A stretch of DNA of 27,874 nucleotides. It comes from Candidatus Sericytochromatia bacterium. GTDB lineage: Bacteria; Cyanobacteriota; Sericytochromatia; S15B-MN24; UBA4093. The position numbers and the translations under genes are program-made. The notes under the pieces were generated by a model. The model worked only from the letters and a program-made list of their open reading frames with translations. It had not been told where the DNA came from and made no database searches. The stretch covers positions 1 through 27,874 of the forward strand of contig JAKFBU010000042.1 in the NCBI GenBank assembly GCA_036676985.1, written 5' to 3'. This document shows, piece by piece, positions 1-21,343 of this stretch; within the stretch, counting starts at the first letter, position 1; the number at the start of each line of letters is the position of its first letter.

Positions 1-2310
1 AGCGCCGGACCCGGCGCGGGCAAGACCGCCTTGCTGCGCCGCTGGCACGCGGCCAGCCCCGCTCCGGCCTCCTACACGGGGCTCACGTCGGACGACCTCT
101 CCGTCGAGTTCTTCCTCCACCGCCTGCTGTTGCCCTGGCCCGAGATCCGGGCGCCCTTCGAGCAGTTGCGTCAGGACCTGCCAGGCACCGAGCCGGGGGC
201 CCTGCTGGGGCTCGCATTGACCGCCGCGGCCCCCGACTTCCGCCTGCTCCTCGACGACTTCCACCTCTGCGAAGGGACGCCCCTCGAACCCCTGCTCCTG
301 GGCCTCATCCGACAGTTCCCGCCCGCCGGGACCCTCGTCGTCGCCTCGCGCCACCGGCCGCCCCGGCTCGAGCGCCCCGGCCTGGAGGTCTGGGACGCCG
401 AGCATCCGGCCTGGCAAGGCAAGGCAAGCCGTGAGGACTGGCAGGCCCTCCCTTCCGCCCTCCAGGAGCAGGTCGTGGCCCTGCACGTCGTCGGCGAGTT
501 CGCCGACTTGCCGGACGGCGACGAGCTCGTGCGGCGCAACCTGGCCAAACGGGACGGCTCGAACCTCCTGCTGCTGCTCCCCCATTGGCGAGAGGCGGCC
601 GAGCAAGCCCTGGGACGAGGCGTCCCCTCCACCGTCTGGCACCTGGTCGCCGACGGACTCAAGGCCCATGGCCGGCGCCACTTTCAAACCCAGGAGGGTC
701 GAGCCGGCCAGCAACGCCTCGGCAAGGTGCCGCCCGAGGCGCGCCAAACGCACGCGTACTTCCTGCGACTGGAAGGGTCGATGCTCCTCGAGGCGGGCAA
801 CCTGGAAGGCGGCTGGGCGACCTTCGACATGGCCCTGCAAGCCTGCGAGGCAGAGCCGCAGGAGCTCCTCGACACCCTTCTCGAGATGGCGACGGGCGCC
901 TCGATCCAGCGCGACCTCGAACGATTCGAGACCCTCATGGCCGAGCTCGCCCCGCAACAGGACCGTCTCACCGCCGCCCAGCGCGCTCGCTTCCTCAACC
1001 TCAGAGCCTGGGCGCAATGGCTGGCGGCCGACACCGCGGCGGTCCAGGCCCTCTGGGAGCAGGTGCTCTCCGTGCCCCCGCTCGGCGATCGCGCCGTATC
1101 CTACGAGCACTACCTGGCCCTCTTGGGCCAGCACGTCACGCAGAACAACCAGGGGATGAGGCTGGAGGCGACGCGCTACGCCGAGCGGCTTTTCGCGCTG
1201 GTCACCGAGCAAAACTTCGAGCGGGTCCTGCTCGATGCCCACAACGCGCGCCTCCGGTGCCACATGCTCGATCCGCAGGGGACCTGCTCCATCCAGACGG
1301 TGCTCGAGGTCCCGCTCCGGGCCTTCGCGGCCCCCAGCCCCGATGCCGTCCTCAACTTCGTGTCCCTGCTCGCCAGCCGGGCCCTGAAAGCGCTGGCCTA
1401 CTCGACCGCCGACGGCTACTTCCGCCACATGAAGACCCTGGCGATCCGGTACGGGACCTCGGCCTTCGTGCAGATGAGCAACCTCCACCTGCTGGAGATC
1501 GCCTGCTTCCAGGGCCGAACGGTGGAGGCCCGGGTGCTCTTCGACGAGCTGATGCGTCACCCGCTGGACAACGACCAGCTCAACCTCGTCCGGCTCACGT
1601 GGAGCTGGGCCCTCGCCAAGCACGGCGACGCGGAGGCCGCCATCCGACTGCTGCGCGAGGAGGTGGACAACCAGCCCCTCGACGATCTCAGGGAGCATGC
1701 CCAGTCGCTGCTCCGGGCGATCGAGGGCGAGCCCATCCCCGCCCCGCCCGTGCTCTCGCGCCAGTCCTTGCGCAAGACCTTCTGGCAAGAGGCCATGAAG
1801 GGGAACTCCTGGCCCTCGAAAGTCGTCTGCCGGGCATTCGGCGATCTCACCATGACGCGGGACGGCACGTCCCAGCTCCAGCTCTCGCGCCACAAGGCCC
1901 TCACGCTGCTCGGCTACCTCACCCTCAATCCCGACGGCCTTCCCTCCGAGACCCTCGCCGAGCACCTGTTCGGCGATCCCACCGACCTCAACCTCCTGCA
2001 CTCGGCCGCCCACAGCCTGCGTCAGGGCTTCAAGAAGCTGGGCACCGAAAACCTGCTCGAATCCGCCGGCGGGATGTACCGTCTGCGCTGGTGCGAGGTC
2101 GCCCTCTGCGACCTGCACGAGTTCGACGCGCTCTACCGCAAGGCCCGCGAGCTGGAAAACGAGGGACTCACCCAGGGAGCACGGCTCTTCTTCGAGCTCG
2201 CGCTCTGCGTCGCCTCGGCCCCGCTCCTCGACAACCTGCCCGACGATTTCGACAGCGCGCGCGCCGCGCATGCCGGCAAGCTTCGGCACGCCCGCGCGTT
2301 CTGCGCCTGA
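1..2310 (+). CDS. STAND/MalT-like ATP-dependent transcriptional regulator with TPR-like region and C-terminal wHTH/BTAD (SARP-like) module; 5'-truncated by the window edge
   Basis: Frame 1 is open from base 1 and reads SAGPGAGKTALL (Walker A), upstream of the track's TTG at 31. Walker B LLLDDFH and LVVASRHRPP match MalT-type NTPases. The middle is helical and Ala/Leu-rich. The C-terminus (RAFGDLTM...KALTLLGYLTL...LAEHLFGD...LHSAAHSLRQ...GGMYRL...DLHEFDAL) resembles a SARP-type wHTH plus the start of BTAD. Confidence 0.8.
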   Translation, partial: SAGPGAGKTALLRRWHAASPAPASYTGLTSDDLSVEFFLHRLLLPWPEIRAPFEQLRQDLPGTEPGALLGLALTAAAPDFRLLLDDFHLCEGTPLEPLLLGLIRQFPPAGTLVVASRHRPPRLERPGLEVWDAEHPAWQGKASREDWQALPSALQEQVVALHVVGEFADLPDGDELVRRNLAKRDGSNLLLLLPHWREAAEQALGRGVPSTVWHLVADGLKAHGRRHFQTQEGRAGQQRLGKVPPEARQTHAYFLRLEGSMLLEAGNLEGGWATFDMALQACEAEPQELLDTLLEMATGASIQRDLERFETLMAELAPQQDRLTAAQRARFLNLRAWAQWLAADTAAVQALWEQVLSVPPLGDRAVSYEHYLALLGQHVTQNNQGMRLEATRYAERLFALVTEQNFERVLLDAHNARLRCHMLDPQGTCSIQTVLEVPLRAFAAPSPDAVLNFVSLLASRALKALAYSTADGYFRHMKTLAIRYGTSAFVQMSNLHLLEIACFQGRTVEARVLFDELMRHPLDNDQLNLVRLTWSWALAKHGDAEAAIRLLREEVDNQPLDDLREHAQSLLRAIEGEPIPAPPVLSRQSLRKTFWQEAMKGNSWPSKVVCRAFGDLTMTRDGTSQLQLSRHKALTLLGYLTLNPDGLPSETLAEHLFGDPTDLNLLHSAAHSLRQGFKKLGTENLLESAGGMYRLRWCEVALCDLHEFDALYRKARELENEGLTQGARLFFELALCVASAPLLDNLPDDFDSARAAHAGKLRHARAFCA

Positions 2311-2330
2311 TCGGACGGCCAAAACCCAGG

Positions 2331-2366
2331 CTTGGCAACACTTTGCAAGGACTTGCAAGTTATGAT
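2331..2366 (+). promoter_or_regulatory. Putative operator/promoter of the lipoprotein operon: three phased 10-bp repeats followed by a -10-like TATGAT
   Basis: cttggcaaca / ctttgcaagg / acttgcaagt place GCAA at 2335, 2345 and 2355. The last unit is a perfect palindrome. TATGAT lies at 2361-2366. Confidence 0.5.
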
Positions 2367-2447
2367 CCGCCCACCATCCGGTATACGTGAGTCATAGACC
2401 CCTTCCTCGAAGGCTCTAGGCACGTTACTTGGAGGCAATCGACCGAC

Positions 2448-3179
2448 ATGCTCGGCAGGCGTTACCTGGGTCCCCTCGCATTGCTCGCGGCGATCGCCCT
2501 GACCATCGGCTGTGCCCCCGAGGAGGAGGTCGTCGGCAAGGTCGTTCCCCGCCCCACCCCGACCGCTTCGACGAACGGCGTGGGCGGCAAGGTGACCGGG
2601 GGCAATGGTGCTCCCTCGGCCCAGCTGGTGCTGATCGAGCCCGACCTCGAGACGCTCTCGCTCAACGCCCCGGCGGCCGACGGCACCGCTCCGGCGGGCT
2701 ATGCGTTCGAGCAGGCACTCACGGCCCGGGTCCTCCTGACCGACGGCAAGACGGATGCCCAGGGCGTGACCTGGGCGAGCGCCGACGCCGAACGCGTCAT
2801 CGTGACCGACGGGGTGGCCAGGGTCCTGCCCGGCGCGACGGGCGACGTGGTCCTCACCGCGACCTCGGTGAGCGATCCCTCCAAGTCTGACTCCCTGACC
2901 GTCCACATCACCACCGACGGCGAGCTCGACCTGTCCGTCACCCCCGCGCTTTCCCTCAACGAGGCCGCCAACAGCCCCACGACGCTGCACATCACGCGGA
3001 ACGGCACCCCGCTTCCCAACCAGTCGCTCACCAACGACCTGACGGTCCGTCTGCCGGCCGGGACCTACACCTTCCAGGTCACCCGCACCCTGCCCTCGGA
3101 TCCCATGGTCACCTGGTCTGCCACCAACGTGGCGATCACCCCGAACGGCGTCACGTCCCTCCAGGGGAACCTCGAATGA
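2448..3179 (+). CDS. Lipoprotein with Ig-like (Big_2-like) domain and C-terminal PEGA/carboxypeptidase-regulatory-like beta domain
   Basis: GGAGG upstream. Signal peptide with lipobox LTIGC. VTWASAD...VTDGVARV...VVLTATSVSDPSKSDSLTVHI is a typical Big_2 pattern. LPAGTYTFQV is PEGA-like. ATGA overlap with the next gene. Confidence 0.8.
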   Translation: MLGRRYLGPLALLAAIALTIGCAPEEEVVGKVVPRPTPTASTNGVGGKVTGGNGAPSAQLVLIEPDLETLSLNAPAADGTAPAGYAFEQALTARVLLTDGKTDAQGVTWASADAERVIVTDGVARVLPGATGDVVLTATSVSDPSKSDSLTVHITTDGELDLSVTPALSLNEAANSPTTLHITRNGTPLPNQSLTNDLTVRLPAGTYTFQVTRTLPSDPMVTWSATNVAITPNGVTSLQGNLE

Positions 3180-6100
3180 ACGCCGGCACGATGAGGCGGC
3201 TCCTCGCCCTGCTCCTGACCGGCACGTTGCTCGCCCTGGCGGCATGCACCAAGCTGCCTTCCCTCTCGACGCTGGGCTCCACGGTCACGGCGCTCGGCTC
3301 AGACGTGCTGACCGGCACCGTGCACCTCAGCACGCAGGCCACCGCCACCGACGTCTCGAGCGGCGCCACCGTGTCGCTGATCGACACCAGCGACGGCCAC
3401 TCGGTGGCCGCCACCGTGACCAAGCCGGACGGGACCTTTTCGCTCGACATCAAGGGCTGGAAGTACCAGTCCAACACCCCCTATGTCCTCGAAGCGGTCA
3501 AGGGCCTTCCGGCCGGCGGCACCCCGAACCGGGTGGGGGCCGCCGCCGCGCGCTTGAGGACCCTCCTCCGGTACAACGGGGGGTGGGGGAGCCTCACGGC
3601 GGGCACCATCGACATCAGCCCAGCGACCACCGCGCTGTGCACCATCCAGAGCCTCAAGGCCCTGAGCACCGCCCAGCAGCTGGCCGCCATGGGGACGGTG
3701 AACGGGGCGAGCTACACCGGCACCGTGGGCGCCACCGGCATCAGCTCGGCCGAGTTCACGAGCGTCATCGGTCAGGTCAATGCGGCCCTGCTGCTCGATC
3801 AAGATCCCATGCGCTGTATCGCTCGGGACGTGAACAGCGGCGCGTTCGTGCGCCTGGAGCGAGGCGCCCTGGTCACGGACCTCTCGATCACCCAGGGCTA
3901 TCGGGGCGACACCGTCGTCCTCTACGGCAGCGGGTTCGATCGGACGACGAACCTGGTGCGCTTCAACGGGACGCTCGCGACCGGCACCGGGAACCCCACG
4001 GGCACCGAAGTGACGGTCACCATCCCCGCCACCGCGATCGGCGGCCCCCTCACGGTCCAGACCGGCAACCTCATTTCGCTCGCTCTGCCCAACTTCACGG
4101 TGCTGGGCCTGGGCGTCACCTCCGGCAGCCCCATCACCACCGTGGCCGGCCGCTTGTTGCCCAGCCCGGGCACGCCCGCCGCGAACTGGAACTATAACTA
4201 CCTCGCCGGCATCGCGGTGGATGCCGCGAACAACATCTACGTCTCGGAGGAGCAAAACCACAGCGTCTGGAAGATCGACGCCGCCGGCATCGTCTCGCAC
4301 GTGGCCGGCATCGGGGTCGCCGGCAGCGCGGGCGGCAACGGCTCGGCCGCCGCGAGCACCGAGCTGAACCAACCGCACGGCCTGACGGTCGATGCGACGG
4401 GGAGCCTCTACATCACGGACACCAACAACAACCGGATCCTCAAGGTGACCAACGGCATCGTCACGACGGTGGCCGCGGGTGCGCTCAACAACCCTTACGA
4501 CGTCAAGGCGGACGCCGCGGGCAACCTCTACATCGCGGACTGGAAGAACCACCGGATCCAGAAGGTGACGCCCGGGGGCGTCGTCTCGACCGTGGCGGGC
4601 ACGGGGACCGCGGGTGCCGCCGTGGAGAACGTCCCGGCGTCGGGCGCCCCGCTCAACTTCCCCCGGTACGTCGCGCTGGACGCCACGGGCAGCCTGTACA
4701 TCAGCGACAACAGCAACAACCGGGTCCGCATGGTGCCGGCCGTCAGCGGCACCTACTTCGGCCAGGCCATGACCGCCAACAACATCTACACCATCGCCGG
4801 CGGCGGAGCCTCCTCCCTGGAAAACGTCCTGGCGACCACCGCCTCGGTCGGTCCGAACGGCCTCGAGGTCGACGCCGCGGGCAACCTCTACATCGCGATC
4901 TACGGCCTCCACAAGGTCCGCAAGGTCGACGTGGCCACCGGCAAGATCAACACCATCTTCGGCACCGGCAACAGCCTCGCCGGTACCGACGGCGTGGCGG
5001 CGACCGCGGCCCAGGCGCCGTACCCCTACGCGCTGACGTTCGATAAGTCGGGCAACCTCCTGGTCGCCGAGTATGCCATCCCGCGCCTGCGCATCATCCC
5101 CAAGGTCGGCGGCGACTACTACGGAAAGACGGGGCTGACGGCCGGCTTCGCCTACACCATCTCGGGTCACGACTGGCGATACGCCTCGGGTGCCGACGGC
5201 AGCTCCGCGCTCGACGCCCAGCTCTACGGGGGAACGGGCATCGGGCTGGATGCCGCGAAGACCCTCTACTTCGTCGACACCTACATGATCCGCAGCGTCG
5301 CCAATGGCGTGATCAACCGGGTGGTGGGCACCGGGCTCTTCGGCGGGGCGCCCAGCGGCACCGTCGCGACCCTCGGAGGCACCGACGTCCGCGGCATGGC
5401 CGTGGACGCCGCCGGCAACCTCTACTTCACGCACACGTTCTACAAGCTCGCGATGGTGCCCAAGAACGACGGGACCTACTTCGGCCAGGCCATGACGGGC
5501 GGTCGGATGTACATCATCTCGGGCACCGGCTCCAGCGCCTACGGGGGAGACAACGGCCCCGCCACGAGCGGGGGCTTCGTCAATCCCCAGGAGGTGGCGG
5601 TGGATGCGACCGGCAGCGTCTACGTGTCGGATACCGGCAACCACCGTATCCGCATGATCCCGGCTGTCAGCGGCACCTACTTCGGCAAGGCCATGACCGC
5701 CAACAACATCTACACGGTGGTGGGAACCGGATTGGCCGGGGCCGGGGGTGACAACGGAGCGGTCACGAGCGCCACGATCAATTCCCCCCGAGGCCTCACG
5801 CTGGATGCGGCGGGCAACCTCTATTTCGCCGACTGCGGCAACCACAAGGTCCGCAAGGTGACGAGCGATGGGATCATCAGGACCATCGCCGGCTCGGGCC
5901 CCGCGGGCTCGACGGGCGATGGCCTCGCCGGCACCTTCGCCCGGCTCAACACCCCCACCGGGGTCGCCGTGGACAGCCTGGGCTTCGTCTACATCGCCGA
6001 CAGCCTCAATCACCGCATCCGCAAGGTCGATACGACCGGGATCATCTACACGCTGGCCGGATCCAGCGCGGGCTACGCCGGCGACGGCCTCACGGGCGCC

Positions 6101-6202
6101 AGCGCCAAGTTCAACAACCCGCTGTCCGTGGCGGTCGACGCGTCGGGCAGCCTCTACGTGATGGATCGTGACAACCGCCGGATCAGGAGACTGGATCCAT
6201 GA
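3176..6202 (+). CDS. Large lipoprotein: conserved N-terminal domain + IPT/TIG + tandem NHL-repeat (teneurin-like) beta-propellers
   Basis: Lipobox LALAAC. IPT/TIG motif GDTVVLYGSGF...VRFNG...VTVTIP...GPLTV. About 12 NHL blades of the type P.GVAVD..GNLYIAD..NHRIRKV..G.I.T.AG.G. ATGA overlaps at both ends. Confidence 0.9.
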   Translation: MNAGTMRRLLALLLTGTLLALAACTKLPSLSTLGSTVTALGSDVLTGTVHLSTQATATDVSSGATVSLIDTSDGHSVAATVTKPDGTFSLDIKGWKYQSNTPYVLEAVKGLPAGGTPNRVGAAAARLRTLLRYNGGWGSLTAGTIDISPATTALCTIQSLKALSTAQQLAAMGTVNGASYTGTVGATGISSAEFTSVIGQVNAALLLDQDPMRCIARDVNSGAFVRLERGALVTDLSITQGYRGDTVVLYGSGFDRTTNLVRFNGTLATGTGNPTGTEVTVTIPATAIGGPLTVQTGNLISLALPNFTVLGLGVTSGSPITTVAGRLLPSPGTPAANWNYNYLAGIAVDAANNIYVSEEQNHSVWKIDAAGIVSHVAGIGVAGSAGGNGSAAASTELNQPHGLTVDATGSLYITDTNNNRILKVTNGIVTTVAAGALNNPYDVKADAAGNLYIADWKNHRIQKVTPGGVVSTVAGTGTAGAAVENVPASGAPLNFPRYVALDATGSLYISDNSNNRVRMVPAVSGTYFGQAMTANNIYTIAGGGASSLENVLATTASVGPNGLEVDAAGNLYIAIYGLHKVRKVDVATGKINTIFGTGNSLAGTDGVAATAAQAPYPYALTFDKSGNLLVAEYAIPRLRIIPKVGGDYYGKTGLTAGFAYTISGHDWRYASGADGSSALDAQLYGGTGIGLDAAKTLYFVDTYMIRSVANGVINRVVGTGLFGGAPSGTVATLGGTDVRGMAVDAAGNLYFTHTFYKLAMVPKNDGTYFGQAMTGGRMYIISGTGSSAYGGDNGPATSGGFVNPQEVAVDATGSVYVSDTGNHRIRMIPAVSGTYFGKAMTANNIYTVVGTGLAGAGGDNGAVTSATINSPRGLTLDAAGNLYFADCGNHKVRKVTSDGIIRTIAGSGPAGSTGDGLAGTFARLNTPTGVAVDSLGFVYIADSLNHRIRKVDTTGIIYTLAGSSAGYAGDGLTGASAKFNNPLSVAVDASGSLYVMDRDNRRIRRLDP
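4725..5715 (+). repeat. Intragenic near-identical direct repeat (4725-4791 and 5649-5715, 67 nt)
   Basis: I count 63/67 identical nucleotides at an offset of 924 nt (308 codons). Both copies encode RM(V/I)PAVSGTYFG(Q/K)AMTANNIYT. Confidence 0.85.
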
Positions 6203-7197
6203 GGATGACTCGCCCCGCCCTGCTCATCGGCCTCCTGCTCGCCGGCTGCGTCCCGATCGCCGCGCCGCCGGCGCTCTCCGAGACCCCGCCCCTCGTCGGG
6301 CAGGTCGAAGGGGCTCCGGCCCGCGGCACCCAGGCGACGACGGCCGAGGTCGCCAACGGCGCCACCATCTCCTTGATCGAGCCGTCCACCGGGACCACCC
6401 TGGCGACCACCCTCACGGCCGCAGACGGCCGCTTCAGCCTGACGTTCAAGGGCGGCTTCAAGCCCGGGGGTGCGCCCTACTTCCTCGAGGCGATGAAGGG
6501 GCTGTCCAACAACGGCGCGGGCGTCGCCCTGATCCGTCTGCGGACGCTCGTGGCGCACGCGAACGGCGCTTGGATCACCCTCTCGGGCAGCGCCACCTTC
6601 CTCAATCGCAGCACCACCGCCCTCTCGGCCCTCTCCAACCTCAAGGACTTCTCGGACTCCCAGAACATGGCCCTGATGGGCAGCTTGAGCATGAGCACCC
6701 CTGAGACCCTCGAGGGGATCACGACGCCGGACACCTACACCCCGCCGGACTCCCTGACGGCCGTGCTCACGGCGAGCGAGTTCCACCGGGCCTGGAGCCT
6801 GGTGGATCAGGCCGTCACCCGGGACGTGGATCCCATCGCGGGGCTCTTCAGCCGCCCCGCCACGGGCTCGGCCGCGGGCTCGAACGTCGCCAGCGAGAGC
6901 TTCGGCATCTGGGACGGCTTCGGCTGGCAGTCGGACGGCTTCGTTTTCTCCAGCCTCTCGGCCGTGACGGTCGCGCGGGGCGGGACCGTCACCCTTTATG
7001 GGCACGGGTTGGCGACGACGACGGCCGGGGCCCGGGTGACGCTCGGCCCGGGGGGTACGGCATGCCCCGTGACGGCGGCGAGTGCGAACGGCACCTCGCT
7101 CACCATTTCGATCCCGGCGGGCGCCACTCCAGGCTCCTATTCCCTCCAGCTGATCATCGGCCCCTGGACCGCCACCCGGACCTTGACGGTCACCTAG
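6199..7197 (+). CDS. Lipoprotein with the same conserved N-terminal domain as 3176..6202 plus a single IPT/TIG domain
   Basis: Lipobox LLAGC. TQAT..EV..GATISLI...DGRFSL...Y.LEA.KGL...RLRTL aligns by eye with the preceding gene. The C-terminal GGTVTLYGHGL...VT.ASANGTSLTISIP is IPT/TIG-like. Confidence 0.85.
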   Translation: MRMTRPALLIGLLLAGCVPIAAPPALSETPPLVGQVEGAPARGTQATTAEVANGATISLIEPSTGTTLATTLTAADGRFSLTFKGGFKPGGAPYFLEAMKGLSNNGAGVALIRLRTLVAHANGAWITLSGSATFLNRSTTALSALSNLKDFSDSQNMALMGSLSMSTPETLEGITTPDTYTPPDSLTAVLTASEFHRAWSLVDQAVTRDVDPIAGLFSRPATGSAAGSNVASESFGIWDGFGWQSDGFVFSSLSAVTVARGGTVTLYGHGLATTTAGARVTLGPGGTACPVTAASANGTSLTISIPAGATPGSYSLQLIIGPWTATRTLTVT

Positions 7198-7238
7198 CGC
7201 GAAGGGCCCTTGGTAGGCAGTTCAACTTCACCCACGAC

Positions 7239-7305
7239 AAAACCGTTCGTCCCTTCGAGAAGCTTAGGACAGGCTTGAGCCTGGTCGAAAGGCGAACGGG
7301 ATTTT
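7239..7305. repeat. REP-like palindromic element between convergent genes; may act as a bidirectional terminator
   Basis: Nested inverted repeats: AAAA-CCGTTCG...CGAACGG-GATTTT, TTCGA...TCGAA and CAGGCT-TG-AGCCTG. It resembles a widespread palindromic repeat that translates as PFDKLRT / LSLVE (here PFEKLRTGLSLVE); this resemblance is from memory. Confidence 0.65.
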
Positions 7306-7335
7306 AATTGGTGTCTAGCGATCCCACCTAGCCTC

Positions 7336-8622
7336 TCAAGCACCACGAGCGCTTTCAGCAGGCTTCCCGACCCGTCCAGCCGCAGCCATGCCGCGGCGCT
7401 CGTCGACCCTTCGAAGTAACCATAACCCCAGCACGAAGAAGGCGCCCGTCGAGAGCATGGCCACCTTCTGGTTGCCGCCCGATACATACGCGAGCAGGCC
7501 GTAGCTGAGCGGGCCCAGCACGGCCGACAGCTTCACGGCGAGCCCCCAGAGCCCGAAGAACTCGGCCTCCCGCCCCGGCGGCGTGAAGCGCCCGATGAGC
7601 GCTCGCCCTGCCGACTGGCACGATCCCAGCGCGAGCCCGATGAGGGTCGCCGCCGCCCAGAAGGCCGGCACGCTGCTAGAAAAGTAGGCGATCGCGATCG
7701 CCACGATCCACCCCCCGAGCGTCAGCGACAGCGCCGGCACCGACCCGACCCGGTCCTGCAAGGCCCCCACCCCGAACGCCCCCACGGCCGCCGCCAAGTT
7801 GACCACGAGGATCAGCACCAGGCTGTGCTCGACCGTGAAGCCCATGACCACCTGCGCGTACACCGCGGCGATGACGACCACCGTGTAGAGGCCCGCGTTA
7901 TAGGCCACCAACGCCGGCAAGAAGCGAAACAGGTCCTGGAACCGGACGGCCTCCTCGACGGTGGCTCCCAGGCGCCTGAAGACGGCACCGATCCCCCCGG
8001 CAGGCCCGGGGACCCCGCGCTCCTCAAGCCAAAGCAGGCTCGGAAGGGCCGCGAGCCCATAGATCGTCGCCACGATGAGCAGGACGTACGGCACATACTC
8101 CGGGGCCGCCAGACCCCGCGCCTGGGCCCACGTCACCACGACGATGCACAGCCCCAGCGTGAGCAGGCCGCCGAGGTAGCCGACGGTCCAGCCGATACCC
8201 GAGAGGCGCCCGAGATCCGACGGCGGCGCCAGCTCGGGCAAAAAGGCGGCGATGAGGTCCTCGGCCGTCCCGAAGCAGAGGTTGGACCCGATCACCAGGA
8301 CCACCGCCGCCCAGGGCGCTACGGCCCACCCCAGGAGCGCGGTCGCGACGAGGCACCCCACGGTCGCCACGAGCAGGTAGCGCTTTTTGGCCGCGCGGTG
8401 GTCCGCCTGGGCCCCCACCACCGGGGCGGAGACGAGCACGAGCAGGTTCGAGACGGCGATCGCCGTCGTCCAGAGCAGCGTCGCGCCCCCGGGCCCCAGG
8501 TCCGCCGCCACCTCCCGCACGAAGTACGCGCTGTAGATCGCCGTCAGCACCACCGTCGCGTAGCCCGAGTTCGCAAAGTCGTAGAAGGCCCAGGCCCAGC
8601 GCTCCCGGCCCATGGCGATCAT
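7336..8622 (-). CDS. MFS transporter (UMF1/Atg22-like)
   Basis: The real start is MIAMGRERWAWAFYDFANSGY (ATG at 8622, ATGA overlap with the upstream stop), not the 784-aa track ORF. WAFYDFANS is typical of this MFS family. About 12 hydrophobic segments, with motifs AFLPELA...LSGIGWTVGYLGG and EFFGLWGL. Confidence 0.88.
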   Translation of the reverse strand: MIAMGRERWAWAFYDFANSGYATVVLTAIYSAYFVREVAADLGPGGATLLWTTAIAVSNLLVLVSAPVVGAQADHRAAKKRYLLVATVGCLVATALLGWAVAPWAAVVLVIGSNLCFGTAEDLIAAFLPELAPPSDLGRLSGIGWTVGYLGGLLTLGLCIVVVTWAQARGLAAPEYVPYVLLIVATIYGLAALPSLLWLEERGVPGPAGGIGAVFRRLGATVEEAVRFQDLFRFLPALVAYNAGLYTVVVIAAVYAQVVMGFTVEHSLVLILVVNLAAAVGAFGVGALQDRVGSVPALSLTLGGWIVAIAIAYFSSSVPAFWAAATLIGLALGSCQSAGRALIGRFTPPGREAEFFGLWGLAVKLSAVLGPLSYGLLAYVSGGNQKVAMLSTGAFFVLGLWLLRRVDERRGMAAAGRVGKPAESARGA

Positions 8623-9773
8623 GGGGGCCCCAGCCGGCGTTCCATCAAGATGGCCTCCAGGGCACAAGACAGACGCCACGCATCCCGGATGCCGAGCCCC
8701 CGGATATCCACATGTTGCAGGCCCCGGAGCAGGAAGAGGCGCGCCTGGTACGACGGCACCGCGCGGTCGAGCCGGATGCTCTCCGTGTAGGGGATGATGG
8801 TGTCGTCCTCGCCGTGGATGAGGATGAGCCGCGCCCGGAGGTCGGACAGGCCCCGGCGCGAGAGGTCCAGGGCCTGCATGTCGCTCCAGATGCCCGCGGG
8901 CAAGGCCTCGAGGAGCGCCGGGGTGCGCTCCGGGTCCGTGTTGCTCAAGAGCTCGTAAAGCGATCGCCCCTCCGCTTCCAGCCGCATGGCCAGCTCCTCG
9001 ATGGGCGCCTTGGGATCGCTGATGCGGCGCTCGGCCATCTGCGTCAGCGTACTGCGATCGGGCTCGCTGAAGCGATCGACGTTGCTCAGGACGAAGACCC
9101 ACTTGCCGTAGTCGTTGGGAGCCAGGTAGCGCCAGGGCTCCGTCGGCTCGAGCCGGTAATACCCCGTCGTGAAGAACCGGATGACGTTGGTGATGTCGTA
9201 GTAGCCCCCGATCCCGTACACGAATCGCACCTGGTCCCGCAGCTCGGGCTGCATGGCCGCGAGGATCGCCGGCCCGACGGCATAGCTGTGGCCCCCGATG
9301 CCCACCCGGCCCTCCGGTGCCAGCTCCCGCCGGGAGGCGAGGTAGGTGAAGGCGTCGGCCACCTCCTGGATGTCCGAGGGGCGCACCTTGAGGTCTCGCA
9401 CGCCGGTCATGTCGGGCACCAGGACCGCGAAGCGCACCCGCGCGAGCGTGTAGGCGAGCGACACGAGGCGCGGGTCGTCCTTGCCCTTCTGGGCGGCCCC
9501 CGGCACGAGCACGATGGCCGCCTGGGGCGCCGCGCTCAGGCGGTAGAGATCCCCCGTGTAGAAGCGCCCGTCCACCGTGTAGTCCACCAGGCGCCGGTCC
9601 GGCCAGGGCGTGATCTGCTTGAGGCGGCTCGGGCCCTGTCCCGCCGACAGGTCTGCCAGCATCAGGAGGGACTCGTAGCTCGGCACGCACATGGGCTCGG
9701 TTACGGCCGTGATCGGCGCGCAGCCGACCAAGAGCGCCAGGGCGAGCCCCCAGAGGCGCTCCAGCGGCCTCAT
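8619..9773 (-). CDS. Alpha/beta-hydrolase fold lipoprotein (putative lipase/esterase)
   Basis: Start MRPLERLWGLALALLVGC (lipobox, ATGA overlap at 9770-9773). Oxyanion-region IVLVPGA, nucleophile elbow GIGGHSYAVG, acid in LIHGEDDTII, and His in LQHVD. Confidence 0.8.
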   Translation of the reverse strand: MRPLERLWGLALALLVGCAPITAVTEPMCVPSYESLLMLADLSAGQGPSRLKQITPWPDRRLVDYTVDGRFYTGDLYRLSAAPQAAIVLVPGAAQKGKDDPRLVSLAYTLARVRFAVLVPDMTGVRDLKVRPSDIQEVADAFTYLASRRELAPEGRVGIGGHSYAVGPAILAAMQPELRDQVRFVYGIGGYYDITNVIRFFTTGYYRLEPTEPWRYLAPNDYGKWVFVLSNVDRFSEPDRSTLTQMAERRISDPKAPIEELAMRLEAEGRSLYELLSNTDPERTPALLEALPAGIWSDMQALDLSRRGLSDLRARLILIHGEDDTIIPYTESIRLDRAVPSYQARLFLLRGLQHVDIRGLGIRDAWRLSCALEAILMERRLGPP

Positions 9774-12568
9774 CCCGGGTCCCCCCGCTCGAGCGCGAGC
9801 TCTCCCGAATGGAGCAGGACGGCCTCGTAGGCGGCGTCCCGCAGCCGGGCAGCAGCCGCCAGGTCGCGCCCCGTGGGCCGGATCGGCTGCTCGATCGTCA
9901 GGTGCACCGCTCCGCGCCGCACGAACTTCGAACGGGCCCTGAGCAGGGAGCGCGTCCCCCGTAGCGCCATGGGCACCACCGGCACCCCGGCCTCGGCGGC
10001 CACCACGAACGCCCCCAGCCGAAACGGCCTCAAGCCGGGCTCGCGCACGAACCCGCCCTCCGCGAAGACGAAGAGCGAGTCTCCCGCCCGCAGCGGCTGC
10101 AGGAGGGCGCGGGCGTCCTCGATCGCCCGTTGGGCCTCCTGGCGCTCGACGTACCGGACGCCCAGGCGATCGAAGGGAATCCGCGTGAGCCAATGCCGGG
10201 CGAACTCGCGCTTGGCCACGTAAGTCATCTCGGGCGGCATGGTCGCCATGAGCACGATGGCGTCGAAGTAGCTCGCATGGTTGGCCACCAGCACGCACGG
10301 CGGACAACCCGCCAGGTGCTCGCGGCCATGGACGAAGACGCGCAGGCCATACAGCCGGAGCAGCAAGCGGCAGAGCGCCTTCACGAATCCCCGGCGCCAG
10401 GACCTTCGGGGCAAGAGCACCGTCACGAGCCACCCGACAGGGGCCACGAGCCAGAAGACGAGCCAGGCGTACGCCGAGTACAGCACGTCGAGCGCATTAC
10501 GGGCGCCCCGCCTAAGGCCTGGCCCCAGGCCCGCGAGTCCGAGGCTTGCGACCTGCAGCCAGACCGCCCGACCGCCCGCGAGCTCGCCCCGCTCGTACAG
10601 CTCCCGGGTCGCCGAGCGCCGTATCTTGCCGCTCGAGGTCTTGAGCACCGCATGGGGCGGCGCGAGCACCACCTCGTCCGGCGGCTCGCCCAATCGCTCG
10701 ATCGTGAGGTCCCGGATGTGCTGCACGAGGTGCTTTCGCTCCTCGGGACGGTCCTCACGCGTCTCGGCGATGACCACCAGCCGCTCGGTCCCCGCGTCCG
10801 CCACCCCGATGACCGCCACGCAGCCCTTGCGGATGCCCGGCACGTCGCCGATCGCCTCCTCCAGCTCGTAGGGATAGACGTTGCGGCCGCCCCGGATGAT
10901 GACGTCCTTGACCCGCCCCGTCACGTAGACGTCGCCCCCCGCCAGGTAGGCGAGGTCCCCCGAGTCCAGCCAGCCGTCTCTAAACAGGCCCCGGGTGGCC
11001 TCGGGGTTGCGGAAGTAGCCGCTCGTGCAGGACGGCCCCCGGAACTCCAGGCGCCCCACTTGTCGCTCGGGCAGCTCGCGTCCCCACGCATCCACGATCC
11101 TCAGCTGATGCCCCGGCAAGGGCTGGCCACAGGCCACCATGCGCACGGCGTCCGGATCCTCGGGTGATGCGACCACGGCCCGGCCTTCCCGGAGCAGGGC
11201 TTCGCGCCGGACCCGATCGATCACCGGGCCGCGTCCCGGCGGCGGAAAGGCCAGCCCGACCGAGGACTCGGCGAGCCCGTAGACCGGAGCGAGGGCCTCA
11301 CGCTTGAAGCCGTAGGACCGGAACCGCTCGGCGAAGTGCTCCAGGGTCTCCGGGCTCACGGGCTCCGCACCGTTCACCGCCATGCGCCAGCTCCCGAGCT
11401 CCAGGCCCTCGAGCACCTCGGGCTTGAGACGCCGCGCGCAGATCTCGTAGGCGAAGTTGGGCGCCGCCGAGAGCGTGCCCCGGTAGCGATGGAGGGCCCA
11501 CAGCCAGCGCTCGGGTCGCGCGAGGAACTGCAAGGGCGAGAGCAGGACGAGCGGCATCCGGTAGTACAGGCTGCCGAGCCACGCCCCGATGAGCCCCATG
11601 TCGTGGTACAGGGGCAGCCAGCTCACGAACACGTCGCCCGGCCCGACCCGGGCCACCTCGCCCATGGCCCGGATGTTGGCGAGCAGGTTGGCATGCGTGA
11701 GGACGACCCCCTTGGGGCTCCCGGTACTGCCCGAGGTGTACTGCAGAAAGGCCACGTCCTCGGCATGCGGGCGTAGGCGCGCCGCCTCGCGTCCCCGCAG
11801 GGCCGTAACGGTCTCGATGGCCCGCAGGCTCTCCACGTTGGCCTGGAGGAGCCGTGCTAGGGAGCGCACCTCGGGCACCGAGACGAGCAGCGAGGCCCGG
11901 GCGTTCCGGAGGATGCCCGCCTGGCGCCTCAGGTGCTCCTCGAGCTGGGACGGTCGGAAGGGCGGGTAGATGGGCACGGGCACGAGCCCGGCCAGGAGCG
12001 CCCCGAAGAAGGCCTCCAGGTACTCGACGCCCGTGGGCAGCATGACGGCCACCGTCTCTCCCGGCTGCAGCCCCCGTGCCTGGAGGCCCGCCGCCACCTC
12101 GGAGGCTCCCGTCAGGAGCTCCCGGTACGTCAGCGCCACCTCTCCGGCATCCGTCTGCAGGTGGACGTGCACTCTGTCCGGATGGGACGCCGCGTGCCAC
12201 TCCAGGACCTCCACGAGGGTCCGGGCATGGGCCGGGACCTCGCCCGCGGGCTCCGCGCGGAGGAACGCCACCCGCAGCTCCTCCGCGGCGACCCCGCCGG
12301 GCCGGGCGGCCAACAGGGCCCGCAGGACGTCCCCCAGGGTCTCGGCCGTGACGAGGAGCTGCTCCGGCAGGCGCACGCCGAACCCCGCCTCGACCTTGTG
12401 CAGCAGCTCCGTGCGCCCGAGGCTGTCCAGCCCCAGGTCCCGCTCCAGGGAGCTTTCGAGCGTCACCGGCCGCGGCCGCCCTCGCGGGTGCAGACCGGCC
12501 TGCAGCTCCCGGATGAGCTCCAGGAGCCGGGGCACGGCGACCTCCACCTCGGGACGCTGCGGGGCCAT
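9770..12568 (-). CDS. Trifunctional ACP - fatty acyl-AMP ligase - 1-acyl-glycerophosphate (PlsC-type) acyltransferase
   Basis: N-terminal carrier domain DLGLDSLGRTEL (phosphopantetheine Ser). FAAL motifs FLQYTSGSTGSPKG, SWLPLYHDMGLIG, YGLAE, DSGDL, GRVKD, KTSSGKIRR. A hydrophobic segment precedes the PlsC motifs NHASYFD (HX4D), FAEGG and GAF. Confidence 0.92.
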   Translation of the reverse strand: MAPQRPEVEVAVPRLLELIRELQAGLHPRGRPRPVTLESSLERDLGLDSLGRTELLHKVEAGFGVRLPEQLLVTAETLGDVLRALLAARPGGVAAEELRVAFLRAEPAGEVPAHARTLVEVLEWHAASHPDRVHVHLQTDAGEVALTYRELLTGASEVAAGLQARGLQPGETVAVMLPTGVEYLEAFFGALLAGLVPVPIYPPFRPSQLEEHLRRQAGILRNARASLLVSVPEVRSLARLLQANVESLRAIETVTALRGREAARLRPHAEDVAFLQYTSGSTGSPKGVVLTHANLLANIRAMGEVARVGPGDVFVSWLPLYHDMGLIGAWLGSLYYRMPLVLLSPLQFLARPERWLWALHRYRGTLSAAPNFAYEICARRLKPEVLEGLELGSWRMAVNGAEPVSPETLEHFAERFRSYGFKREALAPVYGLAESSVGLAFPPPGRGPVIDRVRREALLREGRAVVASPEDPDAVRMVACGQPLPGHQLRIVDAWGRELPERQVGRLEFRGPSCTSGYFRNPEATRGLFRDGWLDSGDLAYLAGGDVYVTGRVKDVIIRGGRNVYPYELEEAIGDVPGIRKGCVAVIGVADAGTERLVVIAETREDRPEERKHLVQHIRDLTIERLGEPPDEVVLAPPHAVLKTSSGKIRRSATRELYERGELAGGRAVWLQVASLGLAGLGPGLRRGARNALDVLYSAYAWLVFWLVAPVGWLVTVLLPRRSWRRGFVKALCRLLLRLYGLRVFVHGREHLAGCPPCVLVANHASYFDAIVLMATMPPEMTYVAKREFARHWLTRIPFDRLGVRYVERQEAQRAIEDARALLQPLRAGDSLFVFAEGGFVREPGLRPFRLGAFVVAAEAGVPVVPMALRGTRSLLRARSKFVRRGAVHLTIEQPIRPTGRDLAAAARLRDAAYEAVLLHSGELALERGDPG

Positions 12569-12574: not shown

Positions 12575-13363
12575 TCAGCGGAGGCCGATGGTCTTCCAGG
12601 CGTGGAGCGCGCCGTCGCTCCGGCGTGCCGTCTGGAGCGTGAGCTGGCCTGCCTGGCCCGCGATCCCGTCCTCGTCATTGGTCGTGTCGGGGGTGGCGCG
12701 GCCGCGGTAGTCCGGGTGCGAGCCCGTGATCTCGGCGCTCAGGCGGTCGTCGAAGACCAGCTGGGACGTGAGGGCCTCCTGGCCGCCGACGCGCACGGTG
12801 TAGTGCAGGTGGACCGTGCGTCCGGGGTACCATCCGGGGAAGACGCTGTCGAAGTCCACCCGGCCGCTCGCGTCCGTCACCTGGACGCCTCGCCCGTAGC
12901 GGGCCGCGCTCCCTCCCGAGTCCGTCCGGTTGCAGAAGCTGCCCGGTGCGAAGCCCGAGTAGTTGCCGCCCGGGCCCGCGTGCCAGACCTCCACCTCGGC
13001 GTTCGGGACCGGCTCGCAGCTGCCGGCGCGCACGACCCGCAGGGACAGCCGCATGGGCAGCCCCGCCATGCCCTCGCTGACGTCCCGCCGGGTGGGGGCC
13101 GGTACGCGGCAGGGGCCCGACGTGAACGAAGGCGTCAGGCCGCACGACTCGGCCGCTCCCGCGAAGGGATCCGGGTACGGGCCGCGCATGGCCGCCGTGC
13201 CGCCCGATGCCCACGCAGGTGCGGGGCCTTGCCTGATGGCCCGCTCCGAGGGGCCGTCGGGGCGGTTGCAGCCCGCCGGACCACTCCAGGCGAGCACGAA
13301 GACGACGATGCCCAGACCGACTTTCCACGCGTCAGGCCTGAACGACAGAGCCTCGCAAGACAT
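12575..13363 (-). CDS. Intradiol ring-cleavage dioxygenase-like protein, probably exported
   Basis: ATG at 13363 with GAGAGGG upstream (the track starts at 13396). Motifs GLPMRLSLRVV...C.P..NAEVEVWHA...GNYSG, GRGVQVTD..G.V.F.SVFPGWYPGRTVHLH and TSQLVFDD. Hydrophobic N-terminus ending in AGC. Confidence 0.82.
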   Translation of the reverse strand: MSCEALSFRPDAWKVGLGIVVFVLAWSGPAGCNRPDGPSERAIRQGPAPAWASGGTAAMRGPYPDPFAGAAESCGLTPSFTSGPCRVPAPTRRDVSEGMAGLPMRLSLRVVRAGSCEPVPNAEVEVWHAGPGGNYSGFAPGSFCNRTDSGGSAARYGRGVQVTDASGRVDFDSVFPGWYPGRTVHLHYTVRVGGQEALTSQLVFDDRLSAEITGSHPDYRGRATPDTTNDEDGIAGQAGQLTLQTARRSDGALHAWKTIGLR

Positions 13364-13508
13364 TCCGCAACCCTCTCGCAAGCGGCGGGACGGCACCCGA
13401 GCGGCCGTCTCCTGGAGCCATGCTCACGATACGCACGGGCCATGGTCATGCAATCGGCTAACGTGGTCAACAAGTTATCGGGGCAAGCGTCGAGCCGGGA
13501 AAGCGGCG

Positions 13509-14993
13509 TCAGCCCTGGATCGAGACGCGGGACTCGAGCGGCAGCGTGAACCAGAAGCACGCGCCCTTGCCTGGTCCGTCGCTCTTGGCCCCGACGTGTC
13601 CGCCGTGCGCCTCGACGAGCGCCTTGCTGATGGACAGCCCGAGGCCCGTGCCGCCGACGCGCCGGGTCGAGCTCATGTCGAACTGCGTGAACGGCCGGAA
13701 CAGGAGGTCGAAGTGCTTGGGATCGATGCCCACGCCCTGGTCCTCGACCTCCACCCGCACCTCGTGGTCCAAGACCCGGGCCCGCACCTGGATCCCCCCG
13801 CCTTCGGGGCTGAACTTCACGGCGTTGCTCAGGAGGTTTATGAGCACCTGCCCCACCCGCTGCGGATCCCCGATGAGATCCGGCAGCTCCGGCACGTCGA
13901 TGGACACCTCGAGCCCCGACTTGTCGGCCAGGGGCTGGATGGTGGCCACCGCTTCGCGGATGATCGCCTCCAGGTCCACCACCCCCAGCGTCAGCGTGAA
14001 CTTGCCCGCCTGGATGCGGCTCATGTCGAGCAGGTCGTTGACCAGATTCAGGAGCAGATCGGCGCCGCCCAGGAGCTTCTGGAGGTAGAACTGCTGCTGC
14101 TCCGAGAGCGGGCCCGCCAGCCCGTCCTGCAGGATGCTGCCGAACCCCGTGATGGCGTTGATCGGTGTGCGCAGCTCGTGCGACAGGATGCTCAGGAACT
14201 GGTCCTTGAGCTCGTCCATGCGCCGCCGCTCGGTCACGTCGCGCACGATGGCGGTCGTGAGCAGACCCTCGTCCGGCGTCTCCATCGGGCTCAGGGCGAT
14301 CTCGACCGGGAACTCCGAGCCGTCCTTGCGCAGCCCCGCGAGCGGCAGCCCGGCCCCCATGGGGCGGGTGCGCGGGTGGGCGAAGTAACCCTCCCGGTGG
14401 CCCACGTGCCCCGTCCGGAAGCGGTCGGGGACCAGCATCTCGATGCGCTGGCCCAGGAGCTCCTCGCGGGTGTAGCCGAAGAGCTCGACCATCTGGGCGT
14501 TGGCGTAGACGATGCGACCTTGCCGATCGACGGTCACGATGCCGTCCGGCGCCGCCTCGAGCAGGTTGCGGTAGCGATCCTCGCTGAGGCGCAGCTGGTG
14601 GTCGACCCGGTGACGATCCGAGACGTCCCGGAAGATGGAGAGGACGAACCGCCCGGACTCCGTCTCGAGCGGGAAGCAAGTGACTTCCGCGGGGAGGTCG
14701 CCGCCGTCCTTGCGGCGCCCCATGAGGGGCACGCGCGGCCCCCCCTTTCCGATCTGCGGCTGCTCCAGGGCGGCGGTGTGCAGCTGGACGTAACCGGGAC
14801 GCGACGTCTCAGGGACGAGCACCCCGAGCGACTGACCAAGCAGCTCGCCCGATTGGTAGCCGAACATGGCCTCGGCCTGCTGGTTGGCGAAGACGATGAC
14901 GCCCTGGGCATCGGTGATGACGTAGCCACTCGGAGCCGCTGTCAGCACCTGGCGAAATGTTTGCTCGTTGAAGGGGAACTCCGGCTGCGCCAT
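13509..14993 (-). CDS. Cytoplasmic PAS-PAS sensor histidine kinase (HisKA + HATPase_c)
   Basis: GAGAGGAG RBS. Two PAS domains (AAP.G....D..G.IV.AN...FGY..ELLGQ.....LVP...RKDG..FP.E). H-box SHELRTP, N-box NLLSNAVKF, G1 EDQGVGI, G2 GGTGLGLSI. Confidence 0.95.
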   Translation of the reverse strand: MAQPEFPFNEQTFRQVLTAAPSGYVITDAQGVIVFANQQAEAMFGYQSGELLGQSLGVLVPETSRPGYVQLHTAALEQPQIGKGGPRVPLMGRRKDGGDLPAEVTCFPLETESGRFVLSIFRDVSDRHRVDHQLRLSEDRYRNLLEAAPDGIVTVDRQGRIVYANAQMVELFGYTREELLGQRIEMLVPDRFRTGHVGHREGYFAHPRTRPMGAGLPLAGLRKDGSEFPVEIALSPMETPDEGLLTTAIVRDVTERRRMDELKDQFLSILSHELRTPINAITGFGSILQDGLAGPLSEQQQFYLQKLLGGADLLLNLVNDLLDMSRIQAGKFTLTLGVVDLEAIIREAVATIQPLADKSGLEVSIDVPELPDLIGDPQRVGQVLINLLSNAVKFSPEGGGIQVRARVLDHEVRVEVEDQGVGIDPKHFDLLFRPFTQFDMSSTRRVGGTGLGLSISKALVEAHGGHVGAKSDGPGKGACFWFTLPLESRVSIQG

Positions 14994-15280
14994 CTACGCG
15001 ACTCCTCTCACCGACACCAGCATACCGCCTCTTCGGTCACGTTCGTAGTCCGCCGCGACCGAGAAGTCCGTTCGGACCCGCCATGGATGCTCCGGTCCGG
15101 GGGCGCCAGCGGCGCATGGCGGCTGAGTCGGAGCCGGTCCCGCGGCGTGGGGGCGGAGCGCAACGGATCCCCTCCAGCACCAAATCGCGGGTCCATCCTC
15201 AAGACGCGGCACCCTATCGTCCCCCCACCGGGCTCGGTCGAAGCCAGAATCCTCATGCACGCATGTCATCCTGGCAGGGG

Positions 15281-15300
15281 TATAATATTATTGCTTTATA
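15281..15300 (+). promoter_or_regulatory. AT-rich divergent promoter region with consensus -10 TATAAT
   Basis: TATAATATTATTGCTTTATA sits in otherwise very GC-rich DNA between the divergent kinase and propeller-lipoprotein genes. It contains the palindrome ATAATATTAT. Confidence 0.55.
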
Positions 15301-15341
15301 AGGCTGCATTTTAGTGTCACCCAATGACATCGAGGCAAGAC

Positions 15342-16619: not shown

Positions 16620-16629
16620 GGGGCCCCAG

Positions 16630-20103: not shown

Positions 20104-20118
20104 GCCACCCCGCCGCCC

Positions 20119-21255: not shown

Positions 21256-21274
21256 ATCGAACGACCAGAGAATC

Positions 21275-21310: not shown

Positions 21311-21343
21311 GTGGGAAGGGCATTTCACCGGGATTGCCGACCC

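Follow-up and report, generated by a model that had tools for sequence, protein, structure and literature searches.

An unnamed N-terminal domain shared by adjacent Sericytochromatia lipoproteins and its candidate role as a stalk and pairing module

Two adjacent lipoproteins encoded in a 27,874-nucleotide stretch of DNA from a Candidatus Sericytochromatia bacterium (the window) share a block just after their lipoboxes which is a genuine unnamed domain of about 170-185 residues (here termed the N-domain) and marks a large family of paralogous lipoproteins. The overall best reading, to which a probability slightly above one half (about 0.55) is given, is that the N-domain is a stalk and pairing module that lies close to the membrane and is specific to this lineage. 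Nearly all that is known of Sericytochromatia comes from metagenome bins, and the biology of their envelope is unexplored; the family could warrant a Pfam/DUF entry of its own and may serve to mark the lineage. No new principle is involved, since lipoproteins that combine a beta-sandwich stalk with a propeller or lectin head are common.

The gene cluster and its shared block

The three plus-strand open reading frames at 2448-3179, 3176-6202 and 6199-7197 (P0001, P0002 and P0003) are present as first described, with ATGA overlaps at both junctions (P0001/P0002 and P0002/P0003) and GC3 values of 0.91-0.94 against GC2 values of 0.53-0.61. A promoter and terminator scan of 2200-7500 gave nothing above shuffles. 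The features of this part of the window are:

1..2310, + strand: P0004, a large regulator-like protein truncated at its 5' end, with a P-loop start, a TPR-like middle and a weak BTAD end
2448..3179, + strand: P0001, a 243-residue lipoprotein with a signal peptide, a disordered tether of ~35 residues and Ig-like beta domains at 58-155 and 158-241
3176..6202, + strand: P0002, a 1008-residue lipoprotein with a lipobox (Cys24), N-domain, TIG-like domain and 12 NHL blades
3308..3829, + strand: N-domain copy 1 (P0002 residues ~45-218), matched by the family profile over 45-218 (E 1.7e-60) and found again by hmmsearch on six-frame ORFs
3881..4120, + strand: TIG-like domain (P0002 residues ~236-315), recognised through homology alone, by its alignment to the TIG of P0003
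4133..6199, + strand: NHL beta-propeller region of P0002 (residues ~320-1008), with 12 blade motifs counted in the translation
6199..7197, + strand: P0003, a 332-residue lipoprotein with a lipobox (Cys17), N-domain and TIG, and nothing after
6289..6861, + strand: N-domain copy 2 (residues 31-221 of P0003 as modelled with AF2; ~31-219 by hmmsearch, E 9.2e-65)
6952..7164, + strand: IPT/TIG of P0003 (residues 252-322), with a PF01833 score of 21.8 bits (cut-off 20.9)

Read from the translations, the lipoboxes of P0002 (LAAC) and P0003 (LAGC) both fit the pattern [LVI][ASTVI][GAS]C after the signal peptide, and lipidation of these two proteins is predicted; that of P0001 (TIGC) is looser. The homologous block which the original prediction placed after the two lipoboxes is real (BLASTP, 93 of 280 identities, 33%, E 4e-24), and every motif pair quoted in its support lies within the alignment. 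As this alignment spans residues 53-295 of P0002 and 44-317 of P0003, the homology extends through the TIG region. The proposed length of ~160 residues was slightly short of the range measured here, but the shared block itself stands. A recent tandem duplication was rejected because the window copies are only ~37% identical while each has closer relatives elsewhere, at 71% identity for P0002 (to P0035, its nearest relative) and 58% for P0003; the two copies would thus be old paralogues, and in the family tree P0003 is placed in a clade of 16 rows, all of the short class. Further copies in the window were also sought and rejected, as the hmmsearch over six frames finds just two. P0006, the second NHL lipoprotein of the window, is without an N-domain by hmmsearch.

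The IPT/TIG domain that had been read after the block in both proteins reaches the Pfam cut-off in P0003, whereas in P0002, which has no Pfam TIG match at E<=1, it is recognised by alignment; long-class relatives do carry a Pfam TIG at the position equivalent to ~236-315. The NHL region of P0002 scores above the cut-off for PF01436 (170.6 bits in 8 stretches), with TEN_NHL at 157.5 bits, and its 12 blades probably form two six-bladed propellers. Among PDB sequences this head matches Pizza designs, PknD and a teneurin-like protein, with E 1e-55 to 1.6e-56 for 9pt5/9ifo and 5e-29 for 1rwi. What is common to P0002 and the PknD sensor domain or bacterial teneurin-like NHL propellers is the head but not the N-domain. 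To our knowledge, the ligands of these propellers are largely unknown.

Relation to named families and predicted fold

Pfam-A (2025 copy) and NCBIfam 20.0 contain no model covering the block, and an end-to-end match to a characterised Pfam family, by which the original prediction was to be judged, was not found. Relatives appear under the public names 'IPT/TIG domain-containing protein' or 'hypothetical protein' and nothing else, and a search of the literature on Sericytochromatia with lipoproteins, NHL repeats, TIG domains or beta-propellers did not find the family. The ESM Atlas gave leads only, the best (0.92) to unnamed clusters and those to named clusters at <=0.88, including a 'putative lipoprotein' cluster with PF13620 in 13% of its members. 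In P0003 itself, PF13620 (CarboxypepD_reg) matches residues 48-82 with 15.3 bits, well below its gathering cut-off of 32.3 (E 0.027). Weak matches also occur in 3 of 6 family members (best E 0.0036) and, at E<=0.01, in 8 of 73 short-class members (best 0.0015), arising from a G-A-T-V-S-L-I-D ... D-G-x-F motif. Judged from these weak matches and from partial transthyretin matches, the first ~95 residues appear to be a divergent prealbumin/CarboxypepD_reg-type beta-sandwich, so that the N-domain, although unnamed as a whole as had been claimed, is not wholly unrecognisable.

The AF2 model of P0003 31-221 is a single domain (pLDDT 92.4, pTM 0.89), and its fold can be described with high confidence, as a model, as a seven-stranded beta-sandwich (strands in model residues 2-97), apparently prealbumin/CarboxypepD_reg-like, packed on an alpha/beta subdomain of ~90 residues. 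Foldseek searches of the PDB and BFVD gave no match at E<=1e-3 and none to the whole domain. Transthyretin-like rows reached probabilities of 0.8-0.94 (E 0.025-0.2, TM to target 0.35-0.47) over 70-125 columns, and the best of them, 5-hydroxyisourate hydrolase 3qva (E 0.025) and transthyretins, had a query-normalised TM of 0.2-0.3. The N-domain would resemble PF13620 and transthyretin-like proteins in its predicted seven-stranded sandwich, to which the weak matches also point, but adds the ~90-residue subdomain and an 18-residue insert. Mean column identity in the family alignments is 27-29%; across 73-77 sequences four polar or charged positions are invariant (Arg, Arg, Thr, Asp) and ~10 more are nearly so, with no His in any of these columns. 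Foldseek's longest alignment, over 178 columns with E 0.032, is to the non-heme N-terminal domain of PgcA (9i0d, 9i0e), a Geobacter cytochrome in which, according to the published description, this domain is N-terminal and precedes tethered modules (PMC11520253). However, with TM 0.33, an rmsd of 10.6 A, 16% identity and no sequence-level match, this similarity is a lead only.

In PDB sequence searches with the family alignments the N-domain is unmatched at E<0.28, and all significant matches lie on the TIG part. Among these are the N-terminal TIG domains of 3kya, 4hw6, 3tc9 and 3hrp (E 4.6e-10 to 0.028), which we take to be Bacteroides lipoproteins and in which an IPT/TIG domain is likewise followed by a propeller, although their TIG lies at ~9-97 with no N-domain before it and they come from another lineage. 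Matches to the SGBP-B entries 5e7g, 6d2y and 7k44 (E 2.3e-5 to 8.4e-4) point to a similar arrangement of lipid anchor, Ig-like/TIG stalk and distal binding domain, and some members of the N-domain family also carry CBM4_9 and LamG. In contrast to SGBPs, which are without the N-domain, the heads of this family are mostly NHL propellers, and SusC/SusD-type neighbours, the mark of the polysaccharide utilisation loci in which surface-exposed SGBP and SusE-F proteins are encoded, occur neither in the window nor among the 55 neighbouring ORFs of the genome loci.

Family size, architecture and genomic setting

The possibility that the block is a one-off duplication is ruled out by the family profile, which matches 658 cluster representatives at E<=1e-3 (511 at 1e-10 and 200 at 1e-30) and puts the family at no fewer than 658 clusters at 50% identity. 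A word-indexed homologue search with P0003 40-220 returned 4 relatives of near-equal length and none longer, missing P0002 itself; since the exhaustive profile search gave 658, this low count reflects a limit of the index and not rarity. The N-domain is single-copy in 150 of 150 representatives among the matches listed and starts at residue <=97, a strict lipobox is present in 112 of the 135 members having room for a signal peptide, and the gap from Cys to N-domain has a median of 17 residues.

Profile and Pfam scans of relatives bear out the proposal of a constant N-terminal lipoprotein module with varying C-terminal parts. After the N-domain come at least one and sometimes more IPT/TIG domains, and these are followed by no further part, by a single or double NHL propeller, by Kelch propellers, or by LamG or CBM4_9. 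TIG is present in 62 of 73 short-class proteins (E<=0.01). In the long class (>400 residues; 66 scanned of 71 listed), 43 members are NHL-type and 2 Kelch, 9 are TIG-only or TIG+DUF5057 and 12 are without a Pfam match at 1e-5, while members from the genome loci include LamG+CBM4_9 and an IgGFc_binding-like part. On a FastTree tree of 153 rows, 32 architecture changes were counted against a shuffle mean of 64.8, a count inflated by truncated metagenome proteins and to be used qualitatively; in these terms, architecture seems clustered on the tree, with repeated change.

The family appears restricted so far to Sericytochromatia-type genomes, as surveyed by one scan with a 9-residue pattern drawn from a 6-row alignment. 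Each of the 15 genome loci comes from a metagenome-assembled genome (MAG) that is either of Sericytochromatia type or unnamed; 5 loci are labelled 'Stenomitos sp.' and 2 only 'bacterium'. The initial guess at this lineage fits all named loci. The window and the 15 loci together hold 28 ORFs with an N-domain, and 6 of the 15 loci carry 2-4 copies as tandem arrays; at least 8 family genes occur in one MAG. A neighbouring partner is nevertheless not obligatory, because only one family gene is present in 3 of the 8 loci that measure >=8 kb.

Predicted pairing and candidate roles of the N-domain

The polymerisation or co-assembly that had been proposed gains some support from modelling, as a prediction of pairing between the two N-domain proteins. 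Complex prediction with the N-domain and TIG parts of P0002 and P0003 gave ipSAE values of 0.77, 0.84 and 0.70 (median 0.77), with partner pLDDT >=78 and >=80% contact agreement between runs, while the best of three controls scored 0.00. Among solved complexes, 116 of 157 attain this pass mark, and among mismatched pairs 2 of 215; these counts are only roughly valid because our own alignments were used. The predicted interface is homodimer-like, in that 58 of 69 P0003 interface residues are homologous to P0002 interface positions, and it includes invariant residues of both proteins, R113 and D211 in P0003 and R126 and D210 in P0002. Conserved residues are only weakly enriched at the interface of P0003 (11 of 29, compared with 58 of 273 other residues, Fisher p=0.04); for P0002 the corresponding p is 0.13. 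Since P0002 and P0003 are paralogues, the pass may reflect a homodimer mode common to the whole family and not this heterodimer in particular. The score may instead reflect predictor memory of beta-sandwich dimers, and the four invariant residues (Arg, Arg, Thr, Asp) could alternatively serve as a structural network buried where the two subdomains meet, or bind a ligand.

In the preferred stalk-and-pairing reading, the N-domain and the first TIG would form an isologous dimer interface and act as a membrane-proximal base that pairs family members, either as homodimers or as heterodimers of adjacent paralogues such as P0002 and P0003, and the paired base would hold putative ligand-binding heads off the membrane. 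The domain might instead be a passive spacer, a divergent CarboxypepD_reg/Ig-type stalk and linker that lifts the TIG and heads with no specific interaction, as the weak PF13620 matches over the first ~40 residues, the partial transthyretin-like matches and the parallel to Ig-stalked lipoproteins among the PDB TIG matches (SGBP-B) would allow. This is doubtful, however, given that both halves form one compact unit, that four polar or charged positions are invariant and ~10 further positions nearly so, and that a confident dimer is predicted while the controls score nothing. A relationship to transthyretins or 5-hydroxyisourate hydrolase as an enzyme or small-ligand binder, suggested by the best Foldseek rows and by the four invariant residues, is highly improbable: the structural matches are partial and low-scoring, there is no Pfam or NCBIfam transthyretin match, and these hydrolases rely on conserved His residues, which the N-domain lacks.

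An envelope anchor or sorting module, binding a fixed component (peptidoglycan, an outer-membrane protein or a translocon) and thereby fixing or exporting all members, would account for the constant site next to the lipid anchor and for polar residues conserved regardless of the downstream part, and small Ig-like lipoproteins whose Cys is followed by an acidic run recur next to family genes. However, the 55 neighbouring ORFs, which include LeuRS, pirin, a T2SS ATPase, RapA and an MCP, hold no conserved transporter, translocon or wall-binding gene, and the sequence and fold searches linked the domain to none of the known wall-binding or sorting domains. The anchoring or export role put forward in the original prediction is thus left unsupported, and such a function is considered unlikely.

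A bolder and rather speculative extension is a combinatorial receptor system of Sericytochromatia, in which paralogues side by side would form selective heterodimers through N-domain and TIG, the abundant TIG-only subunits such as P0003 would be obligate partners or adaptors for head-bearing subunits (NHL, Kelch, LamG, CBM), and small Ig-like lipoproteins on acidic tethers, P0001 among them, would be third components. If true, this would amount to mix-and-match envelope binding complexes on a fold without a solved counterpart. The N-domain is confidently predicted, expressible and solvable, and the pairing hypothesis is testable. The AF2 model of P0001 has a pLDDT of 73.5 (residues 1-52 below 50), with Foldseek matches in the PDB to the Big_2-CBM56 structure 7r3t (E 8.8e-7) and LigA 8gyr (E 2.5e-6); its homologues, in loci L008 and L013, adjoin N-domain genes in only 2 of the 15 loci, both from one MAG. 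Upstream, P0004 is regarded as context with a possible regulator role: its Pfam BTAD and TPR_21 matches are weak, as is a MalT-like match, and in locus L012 (12936-14744, E 1e-74) an N-domain gene has a homologue of P0004 downstream of it.

The lipoprotein operon and its shared domain

The operon comprises three consecutive ORFs with GC3 values of 0.91-0.94, in a window of ~70% G+C, and has an ATGA overlap at both of its junctions:

2448-3179, + strand: P0001, Ig-like lipoprotein
3176-6202, + strand: P0002, NHL lipoprotein
6199-7197, + strand: P0003, TIG-only lipoprotein

The predicted structure of P0001 is a disordered tether with two Ig-like domains. P0002 and P0003 both have a canonical lipobox (LAAC with Cys24 and LAGC with Cys17, respectively), and a homologous block starts 14-21 residues past the lipobox Cys (BLASTP of P0002 53-295 with P0003 44-317: 93/280 identities, 33%, E 4e-24). 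All motif pairs quoted in the original prediction are present in this alignment, so the homology stands, but the block (hereafter the N-domain) measures ~170-185 aa and not 160 aa. An IPT/TIG domain was also said to follow in both proteins, which was borne out in P0003 (21.8 bits, just above the Pfam cut-off of 20.9), while in P0002 its presence is suggested by alignment only. C-terminal to this region, P0002 carries 12 NHL blade motifs (counted from the translation; PF01436, 170.6 bits). Because the two N-domains are ~37% identical and hold separate tree positions with closer relatives elsewhere (that of P0003 inside a 16-row all-short clade in FastTree; P0002 nearest to the long protein P0035, at 71% identity), they are old paralogues.

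A one-off duplication, set beforehand as the refutation of a modular system, is ruled out: when 1.84 billion cluster representatives were searched with a six-sequence profile of the shared region (A2), 658 proteins scored E<=1e-3, of which 511 reached <=1e-10 and 200 reached <=1e-30. The N-domain is single copy and starts at residue 2-97 in all 150 listed matches, whose lengths peak at 300-349 aa (67/150) and 600-699 aa (25/150) and extend as far as 1200 aa. Ahead of the domain, 135 of the 154 family proteins examined have enough sequence for a signal peptide; 112 of these 135 have a strict lipobox, and the majority of the remaining 23 a Cys following a hydrophobic run. From the Cys to the domain the median distance is 17 residues.

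As had been supposed, the block belongs to no named family by above-threshold match over the N-domain in Pfam-A (2025 copy), NCBIfam (zero matches for P0003 and propeller matches only for P0002) or profile searches of PDB sequences, where matches were confined to the TIG part. The first ~40 residues give a weak Pfam match to CarboxypepD_reg (P0003, E 0.027), seen in 3 of 6 members (best E 0.0036) and 8 of 73 (best E 0.0015). Relatives are publicly named 'IPT/TIG domain-containing protein' or 'hypothetical protein', with precomputed Pfam TIG or none, and the family did not come up in literature searches on lipoproteins, NHL repeats, TIG domains or beta-propellers of Sericytochromatia. The analysis shows that the N-domain defines a genuine domain family without a name, located at the N-terminus of lipoproteins whose downstream modules vary and whose genes form tandem arrays in Sericytochromatia-type genomes. 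What is new is the domain family, whereas the architecture follows a familiar theme; the predicted dimer can be put to the test.

Predicted fold and pairing of the N-domain

An AlphaFold2 model of P0003 31-221 (77-row alignment; pLDDT 92.4, pTM 0.89) has seven strands in model residues 2-97, with a loop and helix inserted at 7-25, and a C-terminal half of helices (107-118, 123-128, 162-177, 182-185) and a small hairpin (139-146). Foldseek against PDB and BFVD gave no match at E<=1e-3. The longest partial PDB alignment, 178 columns at TM 0.33, was to the non-heme domain of PgcA; PMC11520253 describes a cleavage site where that domain ends, in a passage that names no function for it. We read the model as a sandwich of the prealbumin/CarboxypepD_reg type, to which a lineage-specific alpha/beta subdomain has been added.

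Complex prediction with P0002 39-320 and P0003 31-332, using custom alignments, returned ipSAE values of 0.77, 0.84 and 0.70 in three runs (median 0.77; controls, best of three, 0.00), with partner pLDDT of at least 78 and contact agreement between runs of at least 80%. The pairing mark is reached by 116/157 solved complexes and 2/215 mismatched pairs, a rough calibration with custom alignments. The prediction supports binding of P0002 to P0003 by their N-domain and TIG parts. The modelled interface is isologous (58 of 69 P0003 interface residues lie at positions homologous to those of P0002), so a homodimer mode shared across the family is no less likely than a specific heterodimer. Conserved residues show only weak enrichment at this interface (p=0.04 and p=0.13).

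We propose that the N-domain would serve as a membrane-proximal stalk and pairing base of family proteins. It might instead be a passive spacer, or an envelope anchor or sorting module. A transthyretin-like enzyme is the third alternative to the stalk and pairing base: 5-hydroxyisourate hydrolase and transthyretins are the best partial PDB Foldseek rows (70-125 columns). Invariant columns, in P0003 numbering, are G34, R113, R115, T140 and D211, with G268 in the TIG part; Y94, E97, A98, K100, G101, L102, N105, T116, W125, A141 and P212 are nearly invariant in the N-domain.

Downstream modules and genomic setting

Pfam matches (E<=1e-5) in 66 of the 71 listed matches >400 aa (P0146, P0148, P0152, P0156 and P0160 omitted)
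43/66: NHL-type propeller, mostly C-terminal to TIG (one also with Laminin_G_3)
2/66: Kelch propellers
9/66: TIG only or TIG+DUF5057
12/66: no Pfam match

TIG is detected at E<=0.01 in 62 of 73 short-class proteins, and other heads in the fetched loci are NHL+Laminin_G_3, CBM_4_9+Laminin_G_3 and an IgGFc_binding-like region. The proposal of a constant N-terminal domain with interchangeable downstream modules was largely right. Length class is clustered on a FastTree of 153 N-domains (at least 32 changes against a shuffle mean of 64.8, the count of 32 being inflated by truncated metagenome proteins).

The GTDB species genomes were searched in one narrow scan, for [PT]Y[FVY]LEA[MVA]KG, which yielded 15 confirmed loci:

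MAG labels of the loci (doubtful or uninformative for 7/15)
Candidatus Sericytochromatia: 5
Candidatus Tanganyikabacteria (class Sericytochromatia): 1
'Cyanobacteria bacterium' (one groundwater MAG): 2
'Stenomitos sp.' (one MAG; contigs DATNQJ01...): 5 (L004, L008, L010, L012, L013)
'bacterium': 2

Within these limits of scan and labels, the suspected Sericytochromatia origin fits. The 'Stenomitos sp.' contigs with family genes have 64-69% G+C, and that MAG holds at least eight such genes; its genus label looks doubtful, the family otherwise occurring in Sericytochromatia bins. An N-domain hmmsearch of all six-frame ORFs found 28 (26 in the 15 loci, two in the window), with 2-4 copies in six loci (four each in L009 and L014, three in L010, two each in L003, L006 and L008).

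No conserved non-family partner gene was found by Pfam among 55 neighbouring ORFs, which include LeuRS, pirin, T2SS ATPase, RapA, MCP and amidohydrolase. P0001 homologues adjoin N-domain genes in L008 and L013, both from one MAG. P0004, a large P-loop/TPR/BTAD-like protein, lies upstream of the operon (1-2310), and L012 has two ORFs resembling it (12936-15555; E 1e-74, 2e-24) downstream of a family gene; P0004 may be a dedicated regulator. In L009 and L004, family genes have stand-alone NHL proteins of ~360 aa next to them.

Other features of the window and loci

Small Ig-like or propeller lipoproteins adjoining N-domain genes carry an acidic run directly after the lipobox Cys (C-APEEE, C-PEEA, C-APEED, C-PEDDA and C-VPEEE in five proteins):

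2511-2528: C-APEEE of P0001, residues 22-27
L008:1188-1889, L013:1392-2264, L012:11282-11842 and L003:6631-7824: lipoproteins with the run elsewhere

N-domain proteins have no such run; it may be a sorting signal, with a putative likeness to the acidic export signals of Bacteroidota lipoproteins. Elsewhere in the window lie:

7336-9690, - strand: MFS/ATG22-like transporter, adjoining the next
9770-12568, - strand: carrier-protein domain, fatty acyl-AMP ligase and PlsC-type acyltransferase fusion
15324-17706, + strand: second lipoprotein pair, P0005 and P0006 (ORF overlap 53 nt)
19324-22563, + strand: P0007-P0009, three ORFs
22657-27874, + strand: thioesterase, 4'-phosphopantetheinyl transferase, fatty acyl-AMP ligase with carrier domain, condensation domain

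The transporter and fusion (7336-12568) loosely recall the Aas/LplT lysophospholipid recycling pair, with NCBIfam Aas models below their cut-offs there. P0005 is a weak TolB-like propeller, and P0006 a 379-aa NHL propeller lipoprotein lacking the N-domain and similar to the stand-alone NHL proteins in L009 and L004. P0007-P0009 have no Pfam or NCBIfam matches and no relatives within the fetched loci; P0009 combines a lipobox with long stretches rich in Pro. The condensation domain runs past the window end, and a lipopeptide-type NRPS cluster seems to begin in 22657-27874.
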